Source: Candidatus Tayloriibacteriota bacterium
Lineage (GTDB): Bacteria > Patescibacteriota > Minisyncoccia > Phycocordibacterales > PALSA-1337
Assembly (NCBI GenBank): GCA_003151615.1
Contig: PLXZ01000001.1
Coordinates: forward strand, 3,795-67,794
Direction: 5' to 3'
Length of the DNA stretch: 64,000 bases
Under the pieces are notes generated by a model. That model saw only the letters and a list, made by a program, of their open reading frames with translations, did not search any database and was not told the DNA's origin. Each line of letters opens with the position of its first letter. Position 1 is the first letter of the stretch. Shown piece by piece: positions 6,563 through 55,226 of the stretch. A program made the translations under genes and the position numbers.

Positions 6563-6670
6563 AAATTAAATTACTAATAATTGCACCTACGATATCAGAG
6601 TGCGATAAAATCCTGATAAAATTATCGCGATAAATTATTTCCGAGATTTTGTAAAGAGAAACGAGAAAAA

Positions 6671-7114
6671 CTACTGTATCGTAAAAGCCTGAGTTCCGAC
6701 CAAAACATGATTATTAGCCGAATTAACGAAATAGATTTGATAATTGGTTTTTGGGAATGTATTCGAAGGCACTTTGAAAGTAAAGCTCTGCTGGGTCGAT
6801 GTTGCCGTCCCGAGAACCTGTCCGATGTAAAAGCCCTTGTTTGTGACAAATTCCAAATCGAGAATGTACTTTATGGCATTCGGGTTTTTATTCTTCCACG
6901 TAAGGGTATACATCTGACCGGCGTGCAAAACAGTGGAACCGATGGCGGAGGTAATGACCGGCGGAAGCCGCAGATCGTCGGAAATAAAGGTCGACGACGC
7001 CGAAATGGATGACGAAGCAACGGCCGAAATATTCGCGGGAGTATGAATCGCAGGCGAATAGACCCCGAATAGTGTTCCGAGATAAATCAATATTGTTGCA
7101 AAAAGTGATTTCAT
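6671..7114 (-). CDS. Small secreted hypothetical protein with a signal peptide.
   Basis: 147-aa ORF with N-terminus MKSLFATILIYLGTLFGVYS. Confidence 0.5.
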   Translation of the reverse strand: MKSLFATILIYLGTLFGVYSPAIHTPANISAVASSSISASSTFISDDLRLPPVITSAIGSTVLHAGQMYTLTWKNKNPNAIKYILDLEFVTNKGFYIGQVLGTATSTQQSFTFKVPSNTFPKTNYQIYFVNSANNHVLVGTQAFTIQ

Positions 7115-29420: not shown

Positions 29421-32400
29421 CTACGAAATCGACAGCCCAAAACGATACGAGTCGACGGCAATTTCCTCTCCGCCGAAAAATTCAACGGAACACGTGATGC
29501 CGGAAAGTCCCGTCGTTTTCATCAGTTCGGTTTTGTTGCGCTCGATGAAGGCTTTGCCCGTTTCGTCGGTCATGACCTTGAGTTCGGCCATATCGGATAT
29601 CGTCAAATTTTCCTTTTTGCGGAGATCCTGAATCGCGCGGATGAGTTCGCGGACATTTCCCTCTTCCTTCAATTCCTGCGTCATCGTCGTGTCGAGTTCG
29701 ATTTCATTTTCCGATGCCGCAACCGCCGACAATGAATCGACCACGCCGACCGCTTTCACGTTTATTTCATCGAGAATAAGATTCAAAAATTCCTGAGTAA
29801 GTGCGGAAGACGCCGGCGTTTTTTTGATTGAAAGTTTTGCGAGCGGCTGGCGAACATTTATTTTCGCCTTCATGCGCGCTTCAAGCGCGACAGACGCCAA
29901 GCGCCGCGTCTCGGCCATATTTTTCAGCACATTTGCGTCGATTTTTCCGGCAGAAGGCCATTGCTCGAGATGCACACTTTCTTTGATTGAATTGTGTCCG
30001 TCATTTTGCGACACATTACCCTTCACGCGCTGATATATGTCTTCGGCAAGAAACGGCATGAATGGGGCAAGCAGCTTCGCGGTCTGGAGAAGAATGTGCC
30101 GGGTCGTCGCGAGAGCCGCTTCTTTTTCCGGACCATCTTCCTTGAACCTGTCGCGCGAACGGCGAAGATACCAGGTCGAAAGGTCATCGATGAAATCGGC
30201 AAACGGACGGGCTGCGCGATCCAATTCATACGCTTCCAACCCGCGCGTAACTTCGTCGGTCAATTGCGCAAGGCGCGCCATGATCCAGCGGTCGAGAACA
30301 TGCGGCGAATCGGCAGTCGACTTGTTGTTCGCTGCAGATTCACCGGACGCCGCGGAAACATACATTTCATAAAAAGTGACAACATTTGCCAGACGGCCAA
30401 TGTGTTTTTTCGCCACTTCGTCCACGCCGCGCTCCGCAAAGGCAAATTCTTGTGCGCGGACGAGCGGTGATGCGAGCAAATAGAAACGCAATGCATCCGC
30501 GCTGTATTTTTCAACGACTGGCATCAAATCCGGATAATTCTTCTTCGACTTTGAAAGTTTTTGGCCGTCTTCGGCAAGAACGATTCCGTTGACGATGACA
30601 TTTTTGTACGGCGACTTGCCAAACAGCGCGACGCCCAAAACAAGCATCGAATAAAACCAGCCGCGCGTCTGGTCCTGGCCTTCGGCGATAAAATCGGCCG
30701 GAAAGCCTTTTGATTTTTTGAAGAGGCCGGATTTCGGTTGGAACATTCCACGCTCAGCCGGGGCCGCAGTCGCATCATTGCAAAACGGGTAATGTGCCTC
30801 GCCAAACGGCATCGAACCGGATTCGAACCAGCAATCAAAAACTTCTTCGATGCGGAGCAGGTCCCGGCCATCGGCTGTTTTCATTTTGAAATCGTCGATG
30901 TACGGTCGATGCAGATCGAGCTCGTATTCTTCATTGTGCGGAAGCGGAGTGAAATCGATACGGAACGGCTTTGCATTGAAAATAAAATGATCGGTATGTC
31001 CGCGCACATCAATAGTCTGGGCACGATTGAGACCTTGCGATGCCGCAACCAAAAGAGCAAGCGGCGAATCGTGCGAGACGATCAAAATGCGCTTGCCGAA
31101 ATATTTTTTTTCCAAATCATAAATGAAGTCGCCCATGCGCTTCTTCAAACCGACATAGTTTTCGCCATGCGGCAGCTGCGTGTCAAAGCGTTCCCCAAAT
31201 TTAAATTTTTTGAGAAATTCCTGAAATTCCATTCCGTTATAATCCCCCGCATTAAGTTCGCCAATGCGCGGGTCGACAATGATGCGGTCGGCCGGGATGC
31301 CGATTTTTTTGGCTATGATTTCAGCGGTCTCGCGCGTGCGAAGAAACGGCGATACATATATATAGTCAAATGCCTTTTTGACATTTTGCGCGGCGAGCCA
31401 TTCAGCGGCTTCAGCCACTTGTTTGCGACCGGTTTCGGTGAGATGATGCGGATTTTCGGCTTTCGAACTGATGATTCCTTTCGTATTATTTTCTGCCTCG
31501 CCGTGGCGGACCGCAAAATATTCGTTGACCGGTTTGCTGTATTTTTTGAGGTCGGCAAGAGAACCAATGACCACCGTTTCGGGCTTTTCTCCGGCCGGTA
31601 AATCACTTTCCTTCGTTCTCCACACCGGCAGAGGCGCACCCCAAAATCGCGACCGTGAAATCGCCCAATCACGCGAACCCAGAAGCCAGTTGCCGAAACG
31701 GCCCTCCCCCACTTCCTGCGGAACCCAATTCACTTTTTTATTTTCCGAAACCAATTTGTCGGTCAATTTCGAAACGGTAACAAACCACGACGAGGTGGCG
31801 TAATTCAGAAGCGGAGTTTCGCAACGCCAGCAATGCGGATACGAGTGCACGATTTTTTCCTTCGCAAACAGCGCCGGACCGAGCTTTTTGATTATCTCGA
31901 CATCGCCTTTCTGATGAGCGTCTTTTTCTTCAGGAGACGATTTTGGCTTCACCATGATGCCCGCGAAATCTGTGACTTCCTTTTTGAAGCGGCCGTCCAT
32001 GCCGACATGCTGAACGAATGGCAAATTATATTTTTTACCAAGCTCCATATCGTCTGCGCCAAATGCCGGAGCAATGTGCACGATACCACTGCCGTCAGTC
32101 GTCGTAACGAAATCAGCCGCATATATTTTCCATCCATTTTCGCGATTTTTGAGAGTTGCGTCTTTTGAATAATAACTGAAAACAGGTTTGTATGATTTCC
32201 CGGCGAGTTCGGAACCTTTCATTGTTGTGATAATTTCATGGGGCATATCCTTCAACACATGCGCCATCCGATCCTTTGCCAAAATGAATATGCCTTTTTC
32301 GGTTTTCACTTTTACATATTCAACGTCGGCGCCGACTGCCAATGCGACATTCCCCGGCAGTGTCCACGGCGTCGTCGTCCATGCAATCAGATAAACAGGC

Positions 32401-33086
32401 TGCTCCCCTAGCGTGCCTTTTTCCGCAAATTCGAATTTCGCATACACAGAAATGTCAGTGATGTCCTTGAAACCTTGATTCACTTCAAAATTGGCGAGTG
32501 TCGTTTCGCAATGCGGACAGATTTGCATAGCCTTGAAGCTTTCCGAAATCAGATTTTTGTCGTAAAGATTTTTAAAAGCCCACCAGACCGATTCGGTGTA
32601 GGTCGCGTCCATCGTGCGGTAGTCGTCCTCCATATCAACCCAGCGTCCGAGGCGTGGAATAATGGTCTTCCAATCCTGCGCATACCGCAAAACACTGTCG
32701 CGGGCGGCGGAATTGAAACGTCCGATGCCGTAATCAATGATGTCTTTTTTTGTCTTGAGACCGAGCTCTTTTTCAATCAGATTTTCTACCGGCAAGCCGT
32801 GGCAATCCCAGCCCCAGCGGCGGCGCACCCGAAAGCCCTGCATTGTCTTGTAACGCGGAATCGCATCCTTTATCGAAGTCGGCAGGACGTGGCCGAAGTG
32901 CGGCAAACCGGTCGCAAACGGCGGCCCGTCATAAAAGACAAAATCGCCCCGCGGTTTTTGAAGCGAAGCCGGCGTCTCCACCGATTTCCGGAAAATATCC
33001 TTTTCGTTCCAGAATTTCAGGATTTTTTCTTCGCGTTCGGCGTGGGCGGATTTTGGAACGGCTTGTTTTTTGTTCTCTTCGGCCAT
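29421..33086 (-). CDS. ileS: Isoleucyl-tRNA synthetase carrying a ~250-aa insertion with a histidine-phosphatase (PGAM-like) domain.
   Basis: HIGH-type motif PHFGH, editing CP1 motif WTTTPWTLP, WAISRSRFWGAPLPVW, and ...CWFESGSMPF. Between the last two lies YFAVRHGEAENN...LTETGRKQ...SPFLRTRETAEI...LIVSHD. The protein is 1221 aa, against about 940-1050 aa for typical IleRS. Confidence 0.9.
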   Translation of the reverse strand: MAEENKKQAVPKSAHAEREEKILKFWNEKDIFRKSVETPASLQKPRGDFVFYDGPPFATGLPHFGHVLPTSIKDAIPRYKTMQGFRVRRRWGWDCHGLPVENLIEKELGLKTKKDIIDYGIGRFNSAARDSVLRYAQDWKTIIPRLGRWVDMEDDYRTMDATYTESVWWAFKNLYDKNLISESFKAMQICPHCETTLANFEVNQGFKDITDISVYAKFEFAEKGTLGEQPVYLIAWTTTPWTLPGNVALAVGADVEYVKVKTEKGIFILAKDRMAHVLKDMPHEIITTMKGSELAGKSYKPVFSYYSKDATLKNRENGWKIYAADFVTTTDGSGIVHIAPAFGADDMELGKKYNLPFVQHVGMDGRFKKEVTDFAGIMVKPKSSPEEKDAHQKGDVEIIKKLGPALFAKEKIVHSYPHCWRCETPLLNYATSSWFVTVSKLTDKLVSENKKVNWVPQEVGEGRFGNWLLGSRDWAISRSRFWGAPLPVWRTKESDLPAGEKPETVVIGSLADLKKYSKPVNEYFAVRHGEAENNTKGIISSKAENPHHLTETGRKQVAEAAEWLAAQNVKKAFDYIYVSPFLRTRETAEIIAKKIGIPADRIIVDPRIGELNAGDYNGMEFQEFLKKFKFGERFDTQLPHGENYVGLKKRMGDFIYDLEKKYFGKRILIVSHDSPLALLVAASQGLNRAQTIDVRGHTDHFIFNAKPFRIDFTPLPHNEEYELDLHRPYIDDFKMKTADGRDLLRIEEVFDCWFESGSMPFGEAHYPFCNDATAAPAERGMFQPKSGLFKKSKGFPADFIAEGQDQTRGWFYSMLVLGVALFGKSPYKNVIVNGIVLAEDGQKLSKSKKNYPDLMPVVEKYSADALRFYLLASPLVRAQEFAFAERGVDEVAKKHIGRLANVVTFYEMYVSAASGESAANNKSTADSPHVLDRWIMARLAQLTDEVTRGLEAYELDRAARPFADFIDDLSTWYLRRSRDRFKEDGPEKEAALATTRHILLQTAKLLAPFMPFLAEDIYQRVKGNVSQNDGHNSIKESVHLEQWPSAGKIDANVLKNMAETRRLASVALEARMKAKINVRQPLAKLSIKKTPASSALTQEFLNLILDEINVKAVGVVDSLSAVAASENEIELDTTMTQELKEEGNVRELIRAIQDLRKKENLTISDMAELKVMTDETGKAFIERNKTELMKTTGLSGITCSVEFFGGEEIAVDSYRFGLSIS
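30852..31619 (-). other. Inserted histidine-phosphatase (phosphoglycerate-mutase superfamily) domain within the ileS ORF, about aa 490-745.
   Basis: RHGEAENN matches the PGAM phosphohistidine signature [LIVM]-x-RHG-[EQ]-x-x-x-N. A downstream SHD/His-containing segment is also present. Confidence 0.65.
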
Positions 33087-33164: not shown

Positions 33165-33312
33165 AATACATATCAAGAGTACAGGGAGGGACCTAGCCCG
33201 ATGAACTGTCAGCAACCCTTGCGAAAGCGAGAAGGTGCTACCACTAGCCCGGCAACGGGAATGATAGTTTCATCTCCACAAACTCGCATTCCCGCCGGAA
33301 GCGGGTTTTGTT
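33165..33312 (+). promoter_or_regulatory. SAM-I (S-box) riboswitch with an intrinsic-terminator expression platform, upstream of sat-cysH.
   Basis: ATCAAGAG-TACAG-GGAGGGAC-CTAGCCCGATGAA-CTGTC-AGCAACC...GGTGCTACCACTAGCC matches the S-box core (ATCAAGAGAGGTGGAGGGACTGGCCCGATGAAACCCGGCAACC...GGTGCTAATTCC). It is followed by the hairpin cccgc-cggaa-gcggg plus TTTTGTTGTT at 33281-33312. Confidence 0.75.
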
Positions 33313-33340
33313 GTTATTAGCAGAGTTAACAAAAAATGAT

Positions 33341-34426
33341 ATGTCAAAAGTAAAAAACAGCATTACGCTCACCGAGCGGCAGCTCTACGATCTGGAGCTC
33401 ATAGCAAACGGAGGATTCGCTCCCCTCTCCGGTTTTCTCAACAAGGACGATTACGAAAATGTGGTCAGCGACAGCCGATTGAAAAACGGCGAACTGTGGC
33501 CAATTCCGGTTGTTCTCGATGTCGATAGCGAAATATTTGCTTCAAAAGTCGGCGATATAATCGATCTTAAAAATAGCCGGGGCAAAAAACTGGCGACACT
33601 TACGATCGAATCAATATTCGTGCCGGATAAAAAAGTCGAAGCGAAAAATGTATACGGCACGACGGATATTTCGCATTTCGGCGTAGATTATCTCTTCAAC
33701 AGGACAAAAGACACTTACGTCGGCGGAAAAATTACGGTCACCGAAAAACCGGAGCATGCGGACTTCGCGCACATAAGAAAAAGTCCGGCCGAATTAAAGA
33801 AAATTTTCGTGGAGAAAGGTCTGAAATCGGTCATCGCCTTCCAAACGAGAAATCCGATTCATCGAGCGCATTTTGAAGTAATTACGCGCTCTGCAAAAAA
33901 GCATAATGCGCATATTCTGATTCACCCCGCCGTCGGACCGACAAAGGACGGCGACATTGATTATCCGACTCGCGTGCGGAGCTATGAAAAATTGGTCGCG
34001 CAACGCCTTCCCGATGCGACACTCTCGCTTCTGCCGATAGCAATGAGAATGGCTGGCCCGCGCGAAGCCCTCTGGCATGCAATCATCAGAAAAAATTACG
34101 GTGCGACGCATTTCATCATAGGACGCGACCATGCCAGTCCGGGAAAAGACCTCGCGGGCAAGGCTTTTTATGGCCTGACCGAAGCCCAGGAATTCGCGAT
34201 ACAATACGCCCGGGAAATTGGCATTGAAATCGTCACTTCGCCTGAACTTGTGTATGACGAAAGCCAGAACGAGTACATATCGCCGGAAGACGCGAAAGCC
34301 GTTTCAAAAATCGTCTCGATTTCCGGAACGGAATTCCGGCGGCGCCTGCGCGAAGGAGAAGAAATACCCGGCTGGTTTTCTTTTCCCGAAGTGATTGAAG
34401 AATTAAGCAAAAATAAAATAAATTAA
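33341..34426 (+). CDS. sat: Sulfate adenylyltransferase (ATP sulfurylase).
   Basis: QTRNPIHRAH and GRDHA(S)PG motifs. The start is taken at MSKVKN, since the upstream TTG lies inside the terminator T-tract. Confidence 0.88.
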   Translation: MSKVKNSITLTERQLYDLELIANGGFAPLSGFLNKDDYENVVSDSRLKNGELWPIPVVLDVDSEIFASKVGDIIDLKNSRGKKLATLTIESIFVPDKKVEAKNVYGTTDISHFGVDYLFNRTKDTYVGGKITVTEKPEHADFAHIRKSPAELKKIFVEKGLKSVIAFQTRNPIHRAHFEVITRSAKKHNAHILIHPAVGPTKDGDIDYPTRVRSYEKLVAQRLPDATLSLLPIAMRMAGPREALWHAIIRKNYGATHFIIGRDHASPGKDLAGKAFYGLTEAQEFAIQYAREIGIEIVTSPELVYDESQNEYISPEDAKAVSKIVSISGTEFRRRLREGEEIPGWFSFPEVIEELSKNKIN

Positions 34427-34432
34427 AAAAAT

Positions 34433-35098
34433 ATGATACAAAAAGAAATAGAAAAAATCAATGCGGAACTGAAAGATAAATCCCCTCTTGAAATAATTGA
34501 ATGGGCGGTCGCGCATGCGGACGGCAATGCCATTGTTTCCACAAATTTCCGGCCTTTTGAAGCGGTAATCCTGCATCTCGTCACAAAAATAAAGCCTGAC
34601 ATTCCGGTTTTATGGGCTGACCATGGATATAACCGACCCGCGACATACAGACACGCGGAGGCTCTGAAAAAATTGTTAGGGCTCAATATAAAAGCCTATG
34701 TTCCACGCATAACCGCGGCCCACCGCGACGCAATCGACGGGCCGATTCCTACTCCGGAAAATGAAGCGGAATTGAAAAAATTCAGCACCATATTCAAGTT
34801 GGAACCTTTTCAGCGCGGCATGAAGGAACTGGCACCCAAAGTTTGGATCACCGCCCTTCGCAAAGATCAAAACCCAAACCGCGCCGAAATGGATATCGTC
34901 AGCGACGACAAAAATTTCGGAGTTTTGAAGGTGAATCCCCTTTTTTACTGGAACAATCAGGATCTAGAAAAATATTTGAAGGAAAATAACCTCCCGAACG
35001 AATGGAGTTATTTCGATCCGGCCAAAGCCGACGAAAAACGCGAGTGCGGACTTCACGCCGCATGGGGCGGTGATGCAATTGCGAAAACGGAAAAATAA
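34433..35098 (+). CDS. cysH: Phosphoadenosine-phosphosulfate reductase family protein (CysH-like). It lacks the Fe-S cysteine cluster, so it is PAPS-reductase-like.
   Basis: C-terminal ECGLH motif (KRECGLH) and a PAPS_reduct fold. No CC...CxxC cysteine pairs. Confidence 0.8.
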   Translation: MIQKEIEKINAELKDKSPLEIIEWAVAHADGNAIVSTNFRPFEAVILHLVTKIKPDIPVLWADHGYNRPATYRHAEALKKLLGLNIKAYVPRITAAHRDAIDGPIPTPENEAELKKFSTIFKLEPFQRGMKELAPKVWITALRKDQNPNRAEMDIVSDDKNFGVLKVNPLFYWNNQDLEKYLKENNLPNEWSYFDPAKADEKRECGLHAAWGGDAIAKTEK

Positions 35099-37433: not shown

Positions 37434-38669
37434 TTAGCCCCGCAAAATCGAATCTATTTTTTTGGCCAGTTTGACGAAGTCTTTTTCAAGTTTCCCGCGC
37501 GTCGTTTCTGCGGCGGAACCGAGGCGAATACCGGATGGGTCGGTCGGAGGGCGCTTGTCAAAAGGAATTGCATTTTTATTGACGATGATGCCGGCTTTTT
37601 CCAATTTATCACTCGCCTCCTTGCCTGAAACCGCGCCGGCTCCCTTCGCATTTTTCTGACCGTTCATCCATGTGTCAACGAGAACCAAATGCGAATCCGT
37701 TCCGCCGGAAATGATTTTCCACCCGCGTTTCGTCAATTCGCCGGCAAGAGCCGTAGCATTTTTCTTGACCTGTTTCGCATATTTTTTGAAAGCCGGAGCG
37801 GCTGCTTCTTTCAAAGCCACCGCGACAGCGGCAATTTGATTGATGTGAGGACCGCCCTGGAGACCAGGAAAAACAGCCTTGTCGATTTTTGATGAAATCG
37901 AAACCGGACCATTGGTGCCATCGACATGCCGGTCGAGCCGGCTGAAAATCATAGCCGCGCGCGGACCGCGCAGTGTTTTGTGGACCGTTGTCGTGACGAT
38001 ATCAGCATATTCAAAAGGCGACGGATATTCCTTCCCCGCAACGAGTCCGGCAAAGTGCGACATATCCACCATCAAAAGCGCGGACTGACCCGTTTCATTT
38101 TTCGCCGCGTCGGCAATGTCGCGGAATTTTTTGAAATCAATGGCGCGCGGATATGCCGTAAATCCGGCGACAATGATGACCGGTTTCTCCCGCATCGCAA
38201 TTTCGCGCAATTCCCCGTAATTGAGCTGCTCCAATTTCGCATCAACACCATATGGAACCTGAACCCAGAATTTTCCGGTAGCGGAAACTTTGTGACCGTG
38301 GGTCAAATGACCTCCATGGTCGAGCGACATGCCCATGATTTTTCCTCCGGGCGGAACGAGTGCTGTGTAAACGGCCAAGTTGGCCGGCGAACCCGACAAA
38401 GGCTGCACATTCACATGCCATTTATCAGCCGACAAACCGAAAGCTTTCAATGCACGCTCAATCGCCAACATCTCGATTTTATCCACCACTTCATTGCCGC
38501 CATAGTAGCGCTTGCCCGCATACCCTTCCGCATATTTATTCGTCAGTTCCGAGCCGAGCGCATCCAAAACATCCTGCGACACATAGTTTTCCGACGCAAT
38601 CAGATTCACGACTTTTTTCTGCCGCTTTTTCTCCGCATCAATCAGTTTTTTAATGGCGGCGTCTTTCAT
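37434..38669 (-). CDS. glyA: Serine hydroxymethyltransferase.
   Basis: IASENYVS...LTNKYAEGY...GGHLTHGHKVS is the SHMT signature. Confidence 0.95.
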   Translation of the reverse strand: MKDAAIKKLIDAEKKRQKKVVNLIASENYVSQDVLDALGSELTNKYAEGYAGKRYYGGNEVVDKIEMLAIERALKAFGLSADKWHVNVQPLSGSPANLAVYTALVPPGGKIMGMSLDHGGHLTHGHKVSATGKFWVQVPYGVDAKLEQLNYGELREIAMREKPVIIVAGFTAYPRAIDFKKFRDIADAAKNETGQSALLMVDMSHFAGLVAGKEYPSPFEYADIVTTTVHKTLRGPRAAMIFSRLDRHVDGTNGPVSISSKIDKAVFPGLQGGPHINQIAAVAVALKEAAAPAFKKYAKQVKKNATALAGELTKRGWKIISGGTDSHLVLVDTWMNGQKNAKGAGAVSGKEASDKLEKAGIIVNKNAIPFDKRPPTDPSGIRLGSAAETTRGKLEKDFVKLAKKIDSILRG

Positions 38670-39633
38670 GTGAATAGCTTATCATATTTTTAATCTTGAA
38701 AGTATTTCCGTGCGTTAACATACCCAAATAAGATGCAACAGTTTCTATCTTAGGCTGATGATCAAGATTCTTAAACATTCTCTTCTTTGTAGCCGTTCTT
38801 AGAACTCTATGGTCAGGAAAATGTATCCACCCAAGGAAATCGACACCTGACGAGAACGTTTTAATGAAAACTTTATCGGGATGAAGTTTCAGGGCCAGTT
38901 TTTCTTCCAAAAATAGTGACATTTTCGGCAATATATCGAGAAGCCAATCCTTGTTCCCGCTCATCACCACAAAATCATCGGCGTATCGGATATAGTATTT
39001 TGCTTTAATCGTGTGCTTCATAAAATGGTCAAAAGCATTCATGTAGACGTTAACCAGAAGCTGCGAGGTGAGATTGCCAAGCGGTAATCCCTTTCCGTCT
39101 ACTGTACTGTGGAAACTTTTAGCCACACGTCCGATAAGCCAAATGACATCAGGATCGGTAATGTACTTTCCTACAGTATCAAGGAGTATTTTTTGATCGA
39201 TTGAAGCAAAAAACTTCCGAATATCGCACTTTAAAATCCAAAGCGTCTTTGTGTTATTCTTGCTCTCCTTTAAAGCAAAATGCTTGAATCGTTCCACTGC
39301 TCGATGTGTACCCCGTAGCTTACGGCATGAGTATGAATCATAAATAAAAGTGCGGTCAAAAAAAGGATAAAGTTCGCGATAGATTGCATGATGCAAAAGT
39401 CTGTCTCGCACACTTGCCTTATGGATATTTCGTGGCTTTGGATCAGAGATATTAAAGGCATAGTAGCCTCCATGGGTATAAGTTTTATTTTTTAAATCAG
39501 TATGTAAATCAAGAATGTTATCGGATAAACGATATTGAAACTCCTGCACATCTTTCTTGCTTCGCTTCCCTTTTAGGAATTCTTTCCACGCTTCGAGCAA
39601 ATTTTCCATAGAAATGATATTGTTGTACATCAT
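38650..39633 (-). CDS. DGR reverse transcriptase.
   Basis: RT motifs PKPRNIHKASVRDR and YADDFVV. Motif 4 is GLPLGNLTSQLLVNVYM; the xGxxxSQ form is diagnostic of DGR RTs, where group II and retron RTs have QGxxxSP. Length is 327 aa. The 3' end overlaps the glyA start by 20 nt. Confidence 0.85.
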   Translation of the reverse strand: MMYNNIISMENLLEAWKEFLKGKRSKKDVQEFQYRLSDNILDLHTDLKNKTYTHGGYYAFNISDPKPRNIHKASVRDRLLHHAIYRELYPFFDRTFIYDSYSCRKLRGTHRAVERFKHFALKESKNNTKTLWILKCDIRKFFASIDQKILLDTVGKYITDPDVIWLIGRVAKSFHSTVDGKGLPLGNLTSQLLVNVYMNAFDHFMKHTIKAKYYIRYADDFVVMSGNKDWLLDILPKMSLFLEEKLALKLHPDKVFIKTFSSGVDFLGWIHFPDHRVLRTATKKRMFKNLDHQPKIETVASYLGMLTHGNTFKIKNMISYSHERRRH

Positions 39634-46717: not shown

Positions 46718-48364
46718 TTATTTATAGAGATACAGGTATTTATTACCGAGAACTGATATTTGTGGATTATTCCTTAACAAATGGGCCAGATCGGTTATCG
46801 AAGTAAAGTTGATGTTTGTTCCGTGATGCGGCTCTATGTGCACGTCACCATTATACTCCATATTATCCGCAAAGGCTTTTTCAAAGATATTCAGCTTTCC
46901 GTCAAGGGCAAATATGGCCGACTGGGCCGTCGAACAGGCAACGTGAGGATTCAAATTTCCATGGAAAAGCCAACCTTTCGGAAGATACTCGGGATTGAAG
47001 TAACCATGCCAATGGGCAATGCCGAAACCTTTTTCCTTTGCCTGCTTGGCATAGCCAGAAGCAGGTTTTACATGTTCCAAAATTGAGGCGGAGATGGCAT
47101 TCCCCACCGCATGCGCCAAAATCACCTTCGTGTCGAATGACGGACGGTAATCTTTCGTCAATTTCATTCCTCGCGGCATTTGCAAATACATTTTTCCATC
47201 AACGAGACCGAGCTTTAATATATCAGTTTCAGGATGAACGTTCGTCTTGTCGGACCCGGATTTCTGGCTCAACACCCATATAGGAGGAACTTTCATGCAG
47301 AATTTTTTGCCGTTCAATTCAATGACAATAAAGAGTTTTCCGCCGGACCAAAAATAATCTTTTCCGGAAGAAATTTCAGGATATTGTTTCATGGCTGATT
47401 CGATTGGCACAAGTTTTTCAATTTCAACCGGCATTTGTTTCGCGAGAAATCCGTAACTCATGCCGCTTCTGTTATCCAAATGAATTTTGCCAATCCATCT
47501 GTAAAATCCGTTACGGAAAGGCATATCGGCAATTTTCTTGCCTTTCGGATACAAACCGGTGGCATCAAAAGCTTTCGCGCCAATCACGATGTCGGCGATC
47601 TGCGACTGATAGTCCTTCGCGGTAACGTCAAAATGCTCGTCGAGGACCACAAATTCGGTAAATTTATGCGGACGTATCGGTGCAACAATTTTTGGCACAA
47701 GGGCATCAAGAACATGTTCTTTGAAATCTTCATCAATTGAATACACGGGATGCGAAGCGTTGAAGTTATACAGAATCCATTCCTTTTTACTGACCAAAAT
47801 GACAATCTGGGTCATATGATACGAGAAAAGATCCATCGCCGTGTCAAAATGCTTTTGAAACTCGCTTTTTTCATCGATATCCTTTGGCTGGTCCAAAATG
47901 GTTATGATGGAATTCTGCGTAAAGCTCGAAGTGTAATCAATCGGCAATTTCCAGGTCTTGTTTTTTCCGAGGGCAATTACGGATATTCCCCTCTTGATGC
48001 GCCACCTTTTCAAAAGATTCCTCAACGCCGAAAAATTAATGAAATAATACGGATGTTCTTTTCTAAAAAGCTCATAGACTGCAAACAGAAAATTATTGGC
48101 AATGATATTAAAAAAACGTTTTGCAATTTTGCGGAAAGGAACTTTTTCCAAAGTATCGGCATATGGGACGACAGATACGCCGAGTTCATGAAATGTCTTC
48201 GTCAATTTTTCCGCGAAAACCTGAATTTCCGGACTTATATTCGCTGTATCATAGGGAAAAAAAGAGACTTTCATCATGGTCGCCATTTCACGGGGTGAAA
48301 GACATGTCTTTTCCTTTATACCGAGTATTTCCTGAATGGCGTCTTGACTGAGCATATGTGCCAT
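46718..48364 (-). CDS. Hypothetical 548-aa protein, directly upstream of and co-oriented with the HK (1-nt gap).
   Basis: Long ORF with no motif I could assign. Confidence 0.5.
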   Translation of the reverse strand: MAHMLSQDAIQEILGIKEKTCLSPREMATMMKVSFFPYDTANISPEIQVFAEKLTKTFHELGVSVVPYADTLEKVPFRKIAKRFFNIIANNFLFAVYELFRKEHPYYFINFSALRNLLKRWRIKRGISVIALGKNKTWKLPIDYTSSFTQNSIITILDQPKDIDEKSEFQKHFDTAMDLFSYHMTQIVILVSKKEWILYNFNASHPVYSIDEDFKEHVLDALVPKIVAPIRPHKFTEFVVLDEHFDVTAKDYQSQIADIVIGAKAFDATGLYPKGKKIADMPFRNGFYRWIGKIHLDNRSGMSYGFLAKQMPVEIEKLVPIESAMKQYPEISSGKDYFWSGGKLFIVIELNGKKFCMKVPPIWVLSQKSGSDKTNVHPETDILKLGLVDGKMYLQMPRGMKLTKDYRPSFDTKVILAHAVGNAISASILEHVKPASGYAKQAKEKGFGIAHWHGYFNPEYLPKGWLFHGNLNPHVACSTAQSAIFALDGKLNIFEKAFADNMEYNGDVHIEPHHGTNINFTSITDLAHLLRNNPQISVLGNKYLYLYK

Positions 48365-48423
48365 GATTATAGCAGAAAAAAGACCTACTCATGCGTTTGA
48401 AACGCACTTTCGGTCTTGTGTTA

Positions 48424-48997
48424 CTACCACGATCGTGCCGTGATTGTAATATGGGGCAGACAACAGCTCCAGCCCGGTTTTGCAATTGTTGCGTCCGAGC
48501 CGGAAACAGGAATCAGTTTCCCGTTATTGCACACTGGGCAGCACCTATCGTCCGCTGATTTTCCGCTGATGGAATCAACTCGAGGAATTCCTGCCGTCCG
48601 AATGTCGCATTTCGGGCAAAAATACAAAGAATTACCACGCATGCCAGGGACAGTCCCGTTCTTTAAAGAAAGCGCCCAAGCCTCCACGCGACAACTTCTT
48701 TTGCCTGACTTTTTCGGTCAGGAGATGCGGTCGCGTGGCGTAAAATTCGCGGTTCTTCCGCCGTTCGTCGGCTTTTTGAGTGCGATATGTTTCAACACAA
48801 ACCCATTCGCCGGTGCCGGAACTGGAAACGCAAAAAATAAGCTCTTCCAGTCCGCCGGCATCATTACGCCTCCAACCTGCAATTCCTTTTTTTTCCAAAG
48901 CCGGAGTCGTCATTGCCTTTGAAGCAAACACTGTTGATTTCATTGCTGTCCTTTCTCTTTTGTTTTTGTTGTTACTGTTTGTACTGTCGTTACCCAT
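48424..48997 (-). pseudogene. Possible frameshifted small Cys-rich (zinc-ribbon-like) protein gene: two overlapping minus-strand ORFs (48632-48997 and 48424-48687).
   Basis: CPWHAW...FCPKCD...CCPVCNNGK is split across two frames. A T8 homopolymer sits at ~48887. Confidence 0.25.
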
Positions 48998-49199
48998 TCG
49001 TCCACAAGGACGATATAACGAAAAACGAGCCCTGGATTTGTTCCAAGACTCGTTTTTGAGATATTTTCCGTTTACTTACCGGGAGAAAATCGCAAAGCCA
49101 GCCTTGGAACTTTTGGTCCAGAGCCAGATAAAGACGCTCACGTTTATTGCCTGCAATGATGTATGCGTTTTTTGCATGCGAATAGTATAGATTGAAACT

Positions 49200-51233: not shown

Positions 51234-51914
51234 TTACGGAAATAGTATCATTTTCCAGACAATATCCAAAACTTCACGCTGAACCTCGGCGATTGGCCGA
51301 TGGCCGTCAACGACAACGCTTTTTATTTCCTTGTTGCCAAAAAATTTCTTGTAGCCGTCTCTGACCGAATTATGAAAAGCGATTGCACGGTTGTCAAAAT
51401 GATTTCCGTCGAGAAGCGACTGGTTGCGCGAGTTTGCCCGGCGAAGGCCTTCCTCGGAACTGACATCTATATATATGTACAGGTCGGGTAATACATTGAG
51501 TTGTTTTCGCAAATGCCAGAAAACTTCCTCAAGCGCGCCTTCGGACTGCGCGATAACGTTGTATGCAAACGAAGAGCCGTCAAAACGATCGGTTATGACC
51601 GATTTTCCCGATTTCATCGCGGGCAGTATGGTTTTCGCAACATGCTCAAAACGCGACGCGAACATCAGGGAGAGCATCGTTTGCGGCAAAGCCCCTTCCG
51701 CCAAAGGGTCTTTCAGTGCGGTGTTTCGTATGACCTCCGCAAAAGGCGATCCGCCCGGTTCGCGGGTCGTGACAACGGCATCGCCCAAGGCTTCCCGGAG
51801 CGCAATCAGAACGGACGATTTCCCCGAGCCTTCCCCGCCCTCGAGGACGATGAATTTTGGCTGCGGCTTGGGCTTTATTTTCACTTCTGATTTTTTTGCA
51901 GTGTTTTTTTGCAT
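51234..51914 (-). CDS. tmk: Thymidylate kinase, with a Lys-rich N-terminal tail.
   Basis: FIVLEGGEGSGKSS P-loop, TREPGG, and DRF...S.AY. Confidence 0.9.
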   Translation of the reverse strand: MQKNTAKKSEVKIKPKPQPKFIVLEGGEGSGKSSVLIALREALGDAVVTTREPGGSPFAEVIRNTALKDPLAEGALPQTMLSLMFASRFEHVAKTILPAMKSGKSVITDRFDGSSFAYNVIAQSEGALEEVFWHLRKQLNVLPDLYIYIDVSSEEGLRRANSRNQSLLDGNHFDNRAIAFHNSVRDGYKKFFGNKEIKSVVVDGHRPIAEVQREVLDIVWKMILFP

Positions 51915-51915
51915 A

Positions 51916-52407
51916 CTATCTTTTGAATTGTTCGGTTGCACCTTCGACCAAATAGACATTTCGGATGCCGCCGGCAATCATGCTGTCCCAGCAGGGCTTG
52001 CAACACCACCAATGTCCCCAGTGATACAAATCAGAACCTGAAATATCGCCGATTTTATTTTGAGCGTCTTTTACAGCACGCGGCTCCGAATGCATTTTGG
52101 AAGAAGCACATCCGGGACACAAATAATATTTCGTTCCCGACTTTATATGAAACATTTTTCTGATGCAAAATTTGTTGTGGAGATTTTTCAGCCATTGTTT
52201 ACGAAGCCTTGATTGGTTCGCGCCGTACCCGATTATTTTTCCGTCTTTGACAACCGTCGCTCCCGTAGGCTGTTTGCTGTCGGTCGAAAATTCCAAAGTG
52301 TACCTTTTGGTTTCAGCCATAAAGGGATTACTGACTGGTACGTATATGAATTTTCTTCCTTCGGGAAGATATGGGTAGGGGTGAGTCATTATGAAAGTAT
52401 ACGACAA
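51916..52407 (-). CDS. dCMP deaminase (cytidine/deoxycytidylate deaminase family).
   Basis: HSEPRA zinc motif plus CKPC...GIRNVYLVE. Confidence 0.8.
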   Translation of the reverse strand: MSYTFIMTHPYPYLPEGRKFIYVPVSNPFMAETKRYTLEFSTDSKQPTGATVVKDGKIIGYGANQSRLRKQWLKNLHNKFCIRKMFHIKSGTKYYLCPGCASSKMHSEPRAVKDAQNKIGDISGSDLYHWGHWWCCKPCWDSMIAGGIRNVYLVEGATEQFKR

Positions 52408-52427: not shown

Positions 52428-53288
52428 ATGACCAAATTTGATGAAATCTACCAGGGAATGGTCGAAAAAATAATGACCGAGGGACTGGAGGAGGTTAACC
52501 AGAGCAAGCAGGCCGGCAGCGAACGCTCGACTTACCTAACCAAGGCTATCCCCGGAATGCATTTTTCCATTGATATAGAAAAGGACGGCTTCCCTCTTTT
52601 GACTCTCAGAAAAATACCGGTGAAGGGAATGGTTGCGGAACAAGCATGGTTCATCATGGGTTCACGAAAACCGGAAGATTTTCTTCGGAGTTATACAAAA
52701 ATTTGGGACGCTTTCACCAATCCTGGCGATGTAGTCACCGTCGCCTACGGATACCGCTGGAGAAAACATTTCGGCCGCGATCAGTTAAAACTTCTCATCG
52801 ACTTACTCAAGAAAGAACCCGGTTCGCGGCACGGTGTTGTACTTGCCTGGGATCCAAGTCAGGACGGACTCTCGCTTCAGAAAAAGAAAAATGTTCCGTG
52901 CCCATATAGTTTCACCGTGAATATCATAGGTGGACGGTTGCACTTGCATAATATAGTGCGTTCAAATGACGTGATGCTCGGCGTGCCCTATGACGTTGCA
53001 GGATTCGCGCTCCTTCAATGCTTGCTCGCGCAAGAGCTCGGGGTAAAACCGGGAATATACAGCCATTCGATTTCAAACGCACATATATATGACACGCATT
53101 ACGAAGCGGCAAAGGAAATTTTGAAGCGAAAAAATGATCATGCAAAAATTACCGTCGTCTTGCCCGAAAAATCGTATGAAAATATCGAAAACAGGAAATA
53201 TGAAGTGGTCGACGCGATAATAAAAAACATTTCCGACCAGTATCAGCCGATGGAGCCGATACAGGGAATAAAAATAGTCGCCTACTGA
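52428..53288 (+). CDS. Thymidylate synthase (ThyA) family protein with Asp at the pyrimidine-specificity position. The substrate may be dCMP rather than dUMP.
   Basis: Aligns to E. coli ThyA across YG.RWR, DQ...L...P.SRR...AW and PC...(RSCD/RSND). LGVPYDVAGFALL corresponds to LGLPFNIASYALL, so N177 is Asp. H147 is Pro (VPCPY). Confidence 0.75.
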   Translation: MTKFDEIYQGMVEKIMTEGLEEVNQSKQAGSERSTYLTKAIPGMHFSIDIEKDGFPLLTLRKIPVKGMVAEQAWFIMGSRKPEDFLRSYTKIWDAFTNPGDVVTVAYGYRWRKHFGRDQLKLLIDLLKKEPGSRHGVVLAWDPSQDGLSLQKKKNVPCPYSFTVNIIGGRLHLHNIVRSNDVMLGVPYDVAGFALLQCLLAQELGVKPGIYSHSISNAHIYDTHYEAAKEILKRKNDHAKITVVLPEKSYENIENRKYEVVDAIIKNISDQYQPMEPIQGIKIVAY

Positions 53289-53327: not shown

Positions 53328-53972
53328 ATGTCAATTATCACTAAACAAGAAATCATCGAGCGCGTGAAATCCGGTTCGATTGTGTTCAAACCAAACCTCG
53401 ACAAGTTCCAGCTCCAAGGACACTCGGTTGATTTGCGGTTGGGTTTTACCTTTATGATTCCGAAAATGTGGCATATGACGCCGAAGGGCCGCGAAACGCT
53501 CGACATAACGCATTTCGACAAGCGCAATCAGGATTATTTCGAAGTAATCGAGCTGGAACAAGGTCAGTACTTCGATCTGCTTCCCCAGGAATACATTCTC
53601 ATTTCGACTTTTGAATCGATGAAAATACCGAAAGACCTCATGGCTGTTCTCTATCCGCGTTCGTCGACAAATCGAAAAGGTCTTTCTCTCGACCTTACCG
53701 GAATAGTTGACGCGGGCTATGAAGGCCAGCTCATCCTGCCTGTTCGAAACAATACTCGCTCGCAGACAGTGCGTCTCTATCCCGGCGAACGCCTCTGCCA
53801 GATAGTGTTTGAAGAATTGAAACAGCCGGTTCCTGACGAAACTCGCGCGAGCAAGTATCATAAAAAAGACATCGTCGACGGAGTATACATGGAGAAAAAA
53901 GACGAGGTTGACCTCCTCATGTCCGGAGACATAAAAAAATTGAAAGCCGACTACGACATTTTGAAGGACTAA
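53328..53972 (+). CDS. dcd: dCTP deaminase (dUTPase superfamily).
   Basis: VDLRLG, PRSS..RKGLSL and GIVDAGYEGQL blocks. Confidence 0.8.
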   Translation: MSIITKQEIIERVKSGSIVFKPNLDKFQLQGHSVDLRLGFTFMIPKMWHMTPKGRETLDITHFDKRNQDYFEVIELEQGQYFDLLPQEYILISTFESMKIPKDLMAVLYPRSSTNRKGLSLDLTGIVDAGYEGQLILPVRNNTRSQTVRLYPGERLCQIVFEELKQPVPDETRASKYHKKDIVDGVYMEKKDEVDLLMSGDIKKLKADYDILKD

Positions 53973-53997: not shown

Positions 53998-54507
53998 ATG
54001 AATTGCTTCATCATAGCCGCCATAACAGCCGACGGATATATAGCGCAGAACGAAAGCCAGACTTCTTTTCTCTGGACAAGCAAGGAGGACAAGAAGCGTT
54101 TTATCGAACTGACAAAGCGCGCCGGTGTTATCGTAATGGGAAGCACCACGTATGCCAGCCTTCCGAAGCCGCTCAAAGACCGCGTAAATATTGTATACAG
54201 CCGGTCAAAAAATTTTGAAGGGGCGGAAACCACCCAGGATGCGCCGGCCGAATTATTGAAGAAACTCGAAACACGAGGCTTCAAGGAAGTCGCCATTTGC
54301 GGCGGCGCGCACATTTACAGCCTTTTCATGAATGCAAAAGTCGTGAACAAAATTTTTCTCACAATAGAACCTCTCGTATTCGGAAGCGGAATAAAACTTT
54401 TCAGTGAAGAATCACCCTTCAAATTAAAACTACTGAACATGGAAAAAACGGAATCGGGAACTCTGCTTCTCGAATATGAAGTTGACTATTTGAATCCCGT
54501 AAAATAA
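53998..54507 (+). CDS. folA: Dihydrofolate reductase family protein.
   Basis: FIIAAITADGYIA...VIVMGSTTYASLP...ICGGAHIY follows the DHFR/RibD-C fold pattern. Confidence 0.7.
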   Translation: MNCFIIAAITADGYIAQNESQTSFLWTSKEDKKRFIELTKRAGVIVMGSTTYASLPKPLKDRVNIVYSRSKNFEGAETTQDAPAELLKKLETRGFKEVAICGGAHIYSLFMNAKVVNKIFLTIEPLVFGSGIKLFSEESPFKLKLLNMEKTESGTLLLEYEVDYLNPVK

Positions 54508-54581: not shown

Positions 54582-55226
54582 ATGGCCACGACCAAGGTCT
54601 CCCGAAATCCGGAAGAGGTCATCGTGCCTCGTCAGGAAATCGTCGGCATGCTCGAAAAGCATCAGGTGCCCTGGAAATCATGGGGCGCCCCCGGCACGAC
54701 AAGCAGAACTTTACACGATTTTTTCAAATATCACGAAACGGATCGCCTGTATTTGCGCAATGGCGCCCACGGTAAAAACGGTTCATCGGACAAATTCATA
54801 ATTGACGTGCACGCAGCGATCGTCATCGTCATGCACCGGATCAACCGGAAATGGCTTGAACTGTATGAAGACCGGCAGGTATTCGATGACAATCCGGAGC
54901 CTTTGATCAGAAGCGGCTTCAACGGAATCGCCGAAACAGCCAAACGGACGGAAACAATGAGTGAAACGGCAAAGCGATGCGTTACCGAAGAACTCAAATT
55001 CGCCGACCCGTCCAAATACGAAATGTCGGAATGTGTCAAAATCGAGCACCGTGAAATTGCGCCGTCGGAAAAATGGCCTGGAGTTTGGGCGGCATATCAC
55101 CGGCACATTTTCGAATGCGTCATATCCCGTCAATTGTTTCTTCCCGACGGGTATGTCGAACGGGAAGGCATCCGCACCATTTACTTCAAATGGAAGCAGC
55201 TCAATCAGTCCGAGCTTCGGGTTTGA
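54582..55226 (+). CDS. Hypothetical protein (214 aa) downstream of folA.
   Basis: ORF only. Confidence 0.45.
   Translation: MATTKVSRNPEEVIVPRQEIVGMLEKHQVPWKSWGAPGTTSRTLHDFFKYHETDRLYLRNGAHGKNGSSDKFIIDVHAAIVIVMHRINRKWLELYEDRQVFDDNPEPLIRSGFNGIAETAKRTETMSETAKRCVTEELKFADPSKYEMSECVKIEHREIAPSEKWPGVWAAYHRHIFECVISRQLFLPDGYVEREGIRTIYFKWKQLNQSELRV

Follow-up and report, generated by a model that had tools for sequence, protein, structure and literature searches.

That cells make thymidylate from deoxyuridine monophosphate (dUMP), with ThyA or ThyX, is treated as a universal rule, and in canonical ThyA the residue Asn177 reads O4 and N3 of uracil. A locus in the 64,000-nucleotide stretch of Candidatus Tayloriibacteriota DNA analysed here (contig PLXZ01000001.1, positions 3,795 to 67,794; hereafter the window) raises the question of whether a bacterium could methylate a cytosine nucleotide and deaminate it only afterwards. 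The gene in question, at 52428-53288, encodes a homolog of thymidylate synthase (TS). The original prediction had assigned to this protein an Asp at the position equivalent to Asn177 of Escherichia coli ThyA, and had offered as one possibility that it converts deoxycytidine monophosphate (dCMP) to 5-methyl-dCMP. The analysis described below bears out this possibility as far as sequence goes: the product is a predicted dCMP C5-methyltransferase, taking up methylene-tetrahydrofolate (methylene-THF) and releasing dihydrofolate (DHF), and the methylation of dCMP itself is considered quite likely. The wider proposal, that the gene belongs to a housekeeping thymidylate module of Paceibacteria in which the canonical pathway would run with deamination moved after methylation, is favoured with moderate confidence.

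The pyrimidine pocket of the thymidylate synthase homolog

The protein matches PF00303 over residues 7-261 with 178 bits (E 2.7e-52, cutoff 24.3). In phmmer alignments to the solved thymidylate synthases 3ix6, 6auj and 4dq1, RSNDVMLGVPYDVAGFALL aligns without gaps to RSADVFLGVPFNIASYALL, which places Asp at the N177 position, and VPCPYSF stands opposite PCHCLFQ, which places Pro at the position of His147. An independent MAFFT alignment with E. coli ThyA returned the same Asp and the same Pro, and no Asn emerged at the specificity site on realignment, so that both substitutions named in the original prediction stand. The numbering of the E. coli ThyA sequence was checked by the expected letters at 15 landmark positions (R21, E58, W80, W83, Y94, R126, R127, C146, H147, R166, S167, D169, N177, H207 and Y209); the key N177 and H147 correspondences are independently backed by the phmmer alignments to structures of the Protein Data Bank (PDB).

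The same MAFFT alignment shows that Cys146, R21, R166, S167, D169 (within RSND), R126, Y94, E58, W80, H207 and Y209 are kept, R127 to His being the sole other catalytic-residue change. The C-terminal tail is kept as well (QGIKIVAY, E. coli GIKAPVAI). The likeness to canonical ThyA (EC 2.1.1.45) also covers the fold, the phosphate-binding arginines and the predicted folate chemistry, with methylene-THF in and DHF out, and the neighbouring genes belong to the same families as those of the canonical pathway (FolA, Dcd/Dut, dCMP deaminase, Tmk). What differs is the pyrimidine pocket, where Asn143, Pro147, Asp177 and Phe83 replace the canonical Leu143, His147, Asn177 and Trp83, and with it the predicted substrate, dCMP.

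Asp177 is a lineage signature and not a chance substitution. Among the 120 closest database homologs (69-100% identity), it is present in all 118 proteins that matched the motif pattern, the other two having no match to it, and PCP[YF] occurs in nearly all. A scan of one genome per GTDB species, with an eight-sequence alignment as query, found relatives in 328 contig stretches, and the 80 listed loci were used for counting. All 80 lie in metagenome-assembled genomes (MAGs) of Patescibacteria, with 64-83% protein identity and labels that include Taylor-, Kaiser-, Adler- and Colwellbacteria, Parcubacteria, Paceibacterota, Minisyncoccia and (uncultured) Saccharibacteria. In these copies Asp177 is found in 76 of 76 that matched the motif, four falling outside the search pattern, and position 147 is Pro or Leu in 80 of 80.

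The signature was followed further by searching 1.8 billion representative proteins with the TS homolog and aligning the best 150. P147 and D177 occur together in 92 of 141 family representatives and D177 with Val, Ile or Leu at 147 in about 20 more, while the canonical H147/N177 pair is found in 20 and first appears only from E ~1e-36 downward. Four positions co-vary across these 141 proteins, as L143/H147/N177/W83 in the canonical form and N143/P147/D177/F83 in the other; of the 116 D177 proteins, 104 have Asn at position 143, whereas 21 of the 23 others have Leu there, and Phe replaces Trp at position 83 along with D177. A phylogeny, which had been put forward as a check on the original prediction, splits 122 of 124 D177 sequences, including that of phage Xp12 and those of the Candidate Phyla Radiation (CPR), from canonical TS with a neighbour-joining bootstrap of 85, and the CPR clade that holds the window protein has a bootstrap of 99. 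In pairwise BLASTP, the window protein matches the Xp12 group at E 1e-57 to 4e-62 (35-40% identity), the best N177 representative at 2.5e-49 (34%), E. coli ThyA at 4.5e-29 (27%) and T4 gp42 at 1e-5 (21.5%).

A tblastn search of 50,697 phage records gave as best matches siphoviruses of Xanthomonas, Pseudomonas, Stenotrophomonas, Achromobacter, Rhodobacter and Roseobacter, with E values of 1e-44 to 1e-48 and 35-40% identity; the best solved canonical TS reached 3e-32. These phages form the Xp12/PaMx74 group, which is the closest among solved and phage-encoded homologs. The window protein shares with this group N143, P147, D177, F83 and D169, falls within the same D177 clade, and around the catalytic cysteine carries KNVPCP, identical to Xp12, Mallos, ZQG1 and JWX and in line with the Xp12-type motif K/R-N-V-P-C-P. 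A cassette of NTP pyrophosphohydrolase, ThyA homolog, dCMP deaminase and dihydrofolate reductase (DHFR) is found in Xp12, PaMx74, Mallos, ZQG1, RcSimone and JWX. The PHROGs collection was tried as a discriminator of D177 and N177 proteins and set aside, as the window protein and Xp12 both match phrog_160, "thymidylate synthase".

Published work gives this signature a functional meaning. A metagenomic association study found that positions 147 and 177 best separate TS homologs on cytosine-modified from those on unmodified phage contigs (PMC8670742). In a 2024 preprint, 5-methyldeoxycytidine (5mdC) was formed in vivo by the Xp12 enzyme and by five out of seven D177 homologs from metagenomes, and every natural enzyme that was tested with the D177 signature and gave a product made 5mdC (bioRxiv 10.1101/2024.12.05.627091). 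The same authors reported that, on modified contigs, 70% of the dCMP-deaminase genes have a TS homolog no more than 3 kb away and that one characterised cis deaminase selectively turns 5-methyl-dCTP into dTTP, and they proposed that thymidine nucleotides of these phages derive from 5-methyl-dC nucleotides (10.1101/2024.12.05.627091). The step from 5-methyl-dCMP to dTMP suggested in the original prediction thus has a counterpart that has been put forward for phage cassettes. The single change N177D in E. coli TS, or N229D in that of Lactobacillus casei, is the classic conversion of a TS into a dCMP methylase (Liu and Santi, 1992; Hardy and Nalivaika, 1992, as cited in PMC8670742), and it is the basis of the substrate prediction made here; the laboratory mutants have only that change, whereas the natural enzyme carries three further co-varying substitutions in the pocket.

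The product can be narrowed down with the diagnostic residues given in a 2026 paper, in which Asp177 indicates dCMP as substrate, an acidic residue at 143, which admits water in hydroxymethylases, indicates hydroxymethylation, and D169N indicates 5-hydroxylation (PMC13326640). T4 gp42, the CMP hydroxymethylase MilA and the 5-hydroxy-dCMP synthases of RB69 and DLP3 belong to the same superfamily, share Asp177 and act on cytosine nucleotides. The hydroxymethylases have Asp or Glu at 143 (Asp in gp42), gp42 has no C-terminal tail and the 5-hydroxylases carry D169N, whereas the window protein has none of these features: it combines D177 with the Asn143 of Xp12, D169 and the tail. All the published criteria predict that it methylates dCMP and does not act as a hydroxymethylase or hydroxylase. 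The linkage to DHFR agrees with this assignment because only reductive methylation oxidises the folate, and the earlier argument that DHFR speaks for methyl transfer holds up, given DHFR in the phage cassettes and at most of the bacterial loci (Table 1) together with the absence of an acidic 143 and of D169N.

Two natural fusions among the D177 homologs support a functional coupling of deaminase, pyrophosphohydrolase and TS activities: P0150 (433 aa) joins a dCMP-deaminase domain to the TS domain, and P0158 (424 aa) joins a MazG-like PRA-PH pyrophosphohydrolase to it. Another D177 homolog, P0173, has an HNH domain.

The conserved gene module and the active sites of its members

The cluster around the TS gene was found largely as the original prediction had described it, with Tmk, a dCMP-deaminase-family protein, a Dcd-family protein and DHFR in place; the exception is the supposed dCTP deaminase, which has no catalytic glutamate. 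Gene order is kept across the related loci while the housekeeping surroundings vary between ribosomal proteins, aminoacyl-tRNA synthetases, serine hydroxymethyltransferase (SHMT) and NusG/SecE. Coordinates and recurrence are collected in Table 1.

Table 1. Features of the window, with their recurrence at the 80 listed loci of related genomes
Feature	Position	Strand	Description	Related loci
TS-superfamily enzyme, Xp12 type (N143/P147/D177/F83)	52428..53288	+	ATG start, 286 aa, PF00303	
Highly diverged dCMP-deaminase-family zinc deaminase	51916..52389	-	157 aa; PF00383, 31.6 bits, cutoff 25; upstream TTG at 52407 possible	80/80, immediately upstream of the TS gene, divergent
Dcd-fold (dCTP deaminase/dUTPase superfamily) protein without catalytic glutamate	53328..53972	+	PF22769, 124 bits; TIGR02274, 120.4 bits, cutoff 92.8	75/80, directly downstream of the TS gene; misses are contig ends
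Dihydrofolate reductase	53998..54507	+	PF00186, 67 bits; PF01872, 61 bits	67/80, adjacent in the module
dTMP kinase (Tmk)	51234..51914	-	TIGR00041, 127.6 bits, cutoff 83.25; begins right after the deaminase stop codon	49/80, beside the deaminase gene
Serine hydroxymethyltransferase, methylene-THF supplier	37434..38669	-	PF00464, 509 bits	66/80, within 8 kb of the TS gene
Classical trimeric dUTPase			140 aa; e.g. locus L008 of a related genome, 7032-7454, with the full RGxGGFGSTG motif	at least 35/80, within 8 kb of the TS gene
Open reading frame just past DHFR	54582..55226	+	214 aa; no Pfam or NCBIfam match	1/80
Isoleucyl-tRNA synthetase	29421..33086	-	1221 aa; His_Phos_1 domain inserted at ~525-691	
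SAM riboswitch	33167..33269	+	59.6 bits	
ATP sulfurylase and PAPS-reductase-family gene	33308..35098			
Reverse transcriptase	38650..39633	-	RVT_1, 85 bits	
Protein without Pfam match	46718..48364	-	548 aa	
Interval beyond the 548-aa gene	48365..49199		~830 bp; no convincing gene	

The window is chromosomal DNA of Patescibacteria (Paceibacteria/Taylorbacteria-like), that is, of a cell and not of a phage. It encodes FtsK, RecA, five aminoacyl-tRNA synthetases, a histidine kinase, two tRNAs and SHMT, and a ribosomal-protein operon stands 6 kb away from the locus, on a contig of 562,931 bp. The named TS homologs come from Candidatus Taylorbacteria, Paceibacterota and Parcubacteria.

The deaminase next to the TS gene is highly diverged. 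H100-x-E102 and C130-x-x-C133 are invariant, as are H71, C75, C91 and C94, and this extra set of one His and three Cys suggests a second zinc site. A single-sequence search of the PDB with the protein gave nothing significant, and a profile of 13 family members retrieved dCMP deaminases first, namely those of cyanophage S-TIM5 (4p9c, 1e-8) and Streptococcus mutans (2hvv, 1e-7), followed by those of T4 and human. An AlphaFold2 model (pLDDT 84) gave its best TM-scores, 0.51-0.56, to the dCMP deaminases of T4, S. mutans, PBCV-1 and human. About 690 proteins make up the family, and those with a source name all derive from Patescibacteria; the same divergent deaminase (E 1e-14) also accompanies a 52%-identical D177 TS on a phage-like contig of 3.9 kb (L090, 751-2108). 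BLASTP between the bacterial deaminase and that of Xp12 gave E>1, and gene linkage is all that the two have in common. Judged from these comparisons, the deaminase of the window belongs to an unrelated branch of the cytidine deaminase (CDA) fold and is not an ortholog of the phage 5-methylcytosine (5mC)-selective deaminases (mSCD), though it occupies the same genomic role. It is predicted to deaminate 5-methyl-dCMP to dTMP.

On the other side of the TS gene, the Dcd-family protein has lost the residue on which deamination depends in its relatives. In E. coli Dcd, E138 activates the deaminating water; at that site GQLILPVRN of the window protein stands opposite GQITLELFN and GHITLELSN of solved Dcd enzymes, and Pro takes the place of the glutamate. 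The same Pro is present in 119 of 120 homologs (71-100% identity) and in at least 95% of 76 syntenic copies. The nucleotide-binding motif PRSSTNRKG is invariant among the homologs and the Asp of GIVDxGY is kept, and an AlphaFold2 model lies nearest to the Dcd structures of Mycobacterium tuberculosis, E. coli and Methanocaldococcus jannaschii (top Foldseek matches, E ~1e-12). The neighbour labelled dCTP deaminase is therefore probably not a deaminase; it is predicted to be a (d)NTP pyrophosphatase, possibly one that cleaves dCTP to dCMP. The dCTPase gp56 of T4 was considered as a model for it and discarded, no T4-like phage being among the 104 matching phage records.

The kinase of the module aligns over its full length with the TMKs of Staphylococcus aureus and E. 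coli. In the alignment to the S. aureus enzyme the Arg of LMFASR is kept, the residue that reads O4 of thymine in solved TMKs. A bona fide Tmk with this Arg fits dTMP as a product at the monophosphate level, and argues against Tmk pushing 5-methyl-dCMP toward DNA. The SHMT gene lies 14 kb from the module in this genome and within 8 kb in most relatives.

Several further genes were noted in passing. The open reading frame just past DHFR is probably outside the module. In L008, a 246-aa protein between the dUTPase and Tmk genes (6230-6970) has two C-P-x-C-T...C-A-C-G motifs and no Pfam match, and it occurs at three of the 80 loci. The isoleucyl-tRNA synthetase of the window has its inserted domain in the middle of the catalytic domain, an architecture shared with the related genome of L008 (1-2028). 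The SAM riboswitch stands upstream of the ATP sulfurylase and PAPS-reductase-family pair, which amounts to sulfate activation in a minimal CPR genome. The reverse transcriptase gene adjoins SHMT in the lowest-G+C stretch of the window and could belong to a retron, a diversity-generating retroelement or a group II intron. Beyond the 548-aa gene, an Rfam scan of 48.3-49.25 kb gave nothing at E<=0.1.

Proposed deamination after methylation and the competing explanations

Taken together, these genes would make up a pathway of four steps. The Dcd-fold protein, its deaminating Glu lost, would act as a pyrophosphatase and convert dCTP to dCMP. The ThyA homolog would then methylate dCMP at C5, giving 5-methyl-dCMP and dihydrofolate, with SHMT charging the folate and DHFR recycling it. 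The divergent dCMP-deaminase-family enzyme would strip the 4-amino group and turn 5-methyl-dCMP into dTMP, which Tmk would finally phosphorylate to dTDP. In comparison with the canonical pathway, deamination is predicted to follow methylation, and the Dcd homolog to be without deaminating ability. Two independent active-site changes agree with this order, since the TS would be unable to read uracil and the Dcd homolog unable to make it. Four things have been observed directly: the signature residues, the placement in the D177 clade, the missing glutamate of the Dcd-fold protein and the gene linkage kept across related genomes.

All substrates and products in this scheme are inferred from sequence, and the flanking steps individually are held with less confidence than dCMP methylation. 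Least secure are the substrate assigned to the Dcd-fold protein and the level, mono- or triphosphate, at which the deaminase acts. The glutamate-less precedents are archaeal Dcd-fold dUTPases, such as P45 of Pyrococcus furiosus (9ln0) and the enzyme of Thermococcus pacificus (8y1w), which makes a triphosphate pyrophosphatase the precedent for a member without Glu. The window protein shares the Dcd fold with these archaeal enzymes and with bifunctional Dcd-Dut proteins, and like the archaeal dUTPases it has no deaminating Glu. It differs from the archaeal dUTPases in being about 55 residues longer, in having Pro and not Met at the site, and in matching the Dcd model better (120 bits) than that of the archaeal dUTPases (51 bits). 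Its type also often co-occurs with a classical dUTPase; as such an enzyme lies beside the module in many genomes, the substrate of the Dcd-fold protein is probably a distinct one, and the protein would not simply be the dUTPase. Conversion of dCTP to dCMP would fill the role of the MazG/HAD enzyme of the phage cassettes, and is the least certain step of all.

A number of points weigh against the pathway with late deamination. By the same archaeal precedents, the Dcd-fold protein here may itself be a dUTPase, or an enzyme that sanitises 5-methyl-dCTP, and not a dCTPase; no classical dUTPase was found within the 64-kb window. The bacterial deaminase has no match among the 50,697 phage records (tblastn, E<=0.01), and the sole characterised phage deaminase acts on the triphosphate, not the monophosphate (10.1101/2024.12.05.627091). 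The tree is a simple neighbour-joining tree that leaves the inner branching of the D177 clade without resolution. Other changes might in principle offset Asp177 and leave the enzyme active on dUMP. A canonical thyA or thyX elsewhere in the genome would demote the module from essential to accessory; a scan for the ThyX motif (RHRxxSxxxxSxR) over the window and all fetched loci with 10 kb on either side gave one match, in L016, which stands out of context and was judged spurious.

The best-placed alternative, compatible with late deamination, is that 5-methyl-dCMP is phosphorylated and incorporated as in Xp12, so that 5mC replaces much or all of the genomic cytosine and the deaminase diverts part of the pool to thymidine. 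The functional set of the module matches that of the Xp12/PaMx74 cassette (NTP pyrophosphohydrolase, D177 TS, deaminase and DHFR), a pyrophosphatase that removes dCTP would fit the exclusion of canonical C, and the action of the one characterised cis deaminase on 5-methyl-dCTP implies a triphosphate pool. The Xp12 cassette goes with complete replacement of C by 5mC (10.1101/2024.12.05.627091). Against this reading, the entry of 5mdC into E. coli DNA needed co-expression of T4 gp1 (10.1101/2024.12.05.627091), the kinase linked to the bacterial module is a bona fide dTMP kinase with the O4-reading Arg, not a promiscuous dNMP kinase, and the G+C content of the window (42-53%) shows no obvious heavy decay of 5mC to T, which is weak evidence. 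Wholesale replacement of C is not known from any cellular organism. On balance this explanation is doubtful. Its extension to the whole class Paceibacteria, in which thymidylate would be made via 5-methyl-dCMP while 5-methyl-dCTP is fed to the replicase and chromosomal C is largely or wholly 5mC, is distinctly improbable.

It is also unlikely that the protein is an ordinary dUMP-dependent thymidylate synthase in which Asp, Pro, Asn and Phe form a lineage-specific version of the same pocket, with neighbours that would be a conventional dCMP deaminase, turning dCMP into dUMP, and a Dcd-fold dUTPase of the archaeal type. All residues for catalysis of methyl transfer are intact, the cutoff of the thymidylate-synthase model TIGR03284 is passed (122.8 against 108.35), and the neighbours come from the classic dTMP-pathway families: dCMP deaminase, dUTPase, ThyA, DHFR and Tmk would form a complete canonical pathway, with the dUTPase role open to a Glu-less Dcd-fold protein as in archaea. 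However, the NF-series NCBIfam ThyA equivalogs are failed by a wide margin in at least five of six cases (142 against 327, for example), the single change to Asp is the one that turns TS into a dCMP methylase, and the protein clusters with the enzymes that make 5mdC and not with canonical TS. Natural enzymes tested with the signature made 5mdC wherever a product was given, and at least 35 of the 80 loci already hold a classical dUTPase beside the Dcd-fold gene.

It is very unlikely that the enzyme makes another cytosine nucleotide modified at C5, for instance 5-hydroxymethyl-dCMP or 5-hydroxy-dCMP, destined for hypermodified DNA or a nucleoside natural product. D177 is common to T4 gp42, MilA and the 5-hydroxy-dCMP synthases, and the superfamily has repeatedly evolved new products, but the published diagnostic residues at 143 and 169 speak against the hydroxymethylase and 5-hydroxylase readings, which were rejected for this reason. 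The similarity to T4 gp42 is low, the TS tail is present, the linked DHFR would be needed only where folate is oxidised, and the module holds no glycosyltransferase or other tailoring genes.

Least probable of all is a phage or mobile cassette recently acquired by the chromosome (as a prophage remnant or for anti-phage or counter-defence functions), for although viral sequences dominate the D177 clade as a whole and the closest homologs beyond the CPR clade are encoded on phage-like contigs (P0124 with terminase, P0121 with the same divergent deaminase), the module is present in all 80 listed MAGs with its order kept in varying housekeeping surroundings, the CPR clade is well separated, and no integrase or phage structural genes lie near the locus in the window. 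Phage or prophage origin of the locus was rejected on this context and conservation. As a separate observation, in contig stretch L092 a region with a terminase adjoins the genes for a D177 TS, a classical dUTPase and an ordinary dCMP deaminase; the small phage-like contigs L090 and L091/L092 may be phages of CPR bacteria.

Relation to the phage cassettes and significance

The proposed housekeeping module with deamination after methylation stands closest to the Xp12/PaMx74 cassette. Both link a deaminase, DHFR and a nucleotide pyrophosphatase to the TS homolog, and in both thymidine nucleotides would be derivable from 5-methyl-dC nucleotides. The phage copies are viral, whereas the copy in the window lies on a chromosome and has been kept by vertical descent throughout a whole class of bacteria. 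The bacterial deaminase shows no BLAST match to those of the phages, and the putative pyrophosphatase is a Glu-less Dcd-fold protein, whereas that of the phages is a MazG/HAD enzyme. Tmk and SHMT join the bacterial module, and its likely end product is dTMP for ordinary DNA, not 5mC-substituted DNA.

The enzyme type and the route from 5-methyl-dC to thymidine nucleotides are already known, from phages, and CPR genome papers treat the gene as an ordinary thyA. In the literature on Asp-type ThyA or dCMP methylation in Patescibacteria and Parcubacteria, only generic mentions of thyA were found, and no report was found that describes, for cellular organisms, the Asp signature, the Dcd partner without Glu or the conserved module.

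If the proposed pathway is true, a large bacterial lineage makes dTMP without a dUMP intermediate, by a chemistry known from no more than a few phages. The annotation and metabolic models of CPR bacteria would then need revising, notably for genes now labelled thymidylate synthase, dCTP deaminase and dCMP deaminase, and the finding would have a bearing on how the cytosine-modification pathways of phages arose in evolution. Methylome-sequencing technology would also gain new natural dCMP methylases from it, and possibly 5mC-selective deaminases. Should 5mC replacement prove true, cellular genomes whose base composition is non-canonical through the nucleotide pool would be known for the first time. 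Under the proposed pathway itself, the presence of pool-level modified cytosine in cellular DNA would become a directly testable question.

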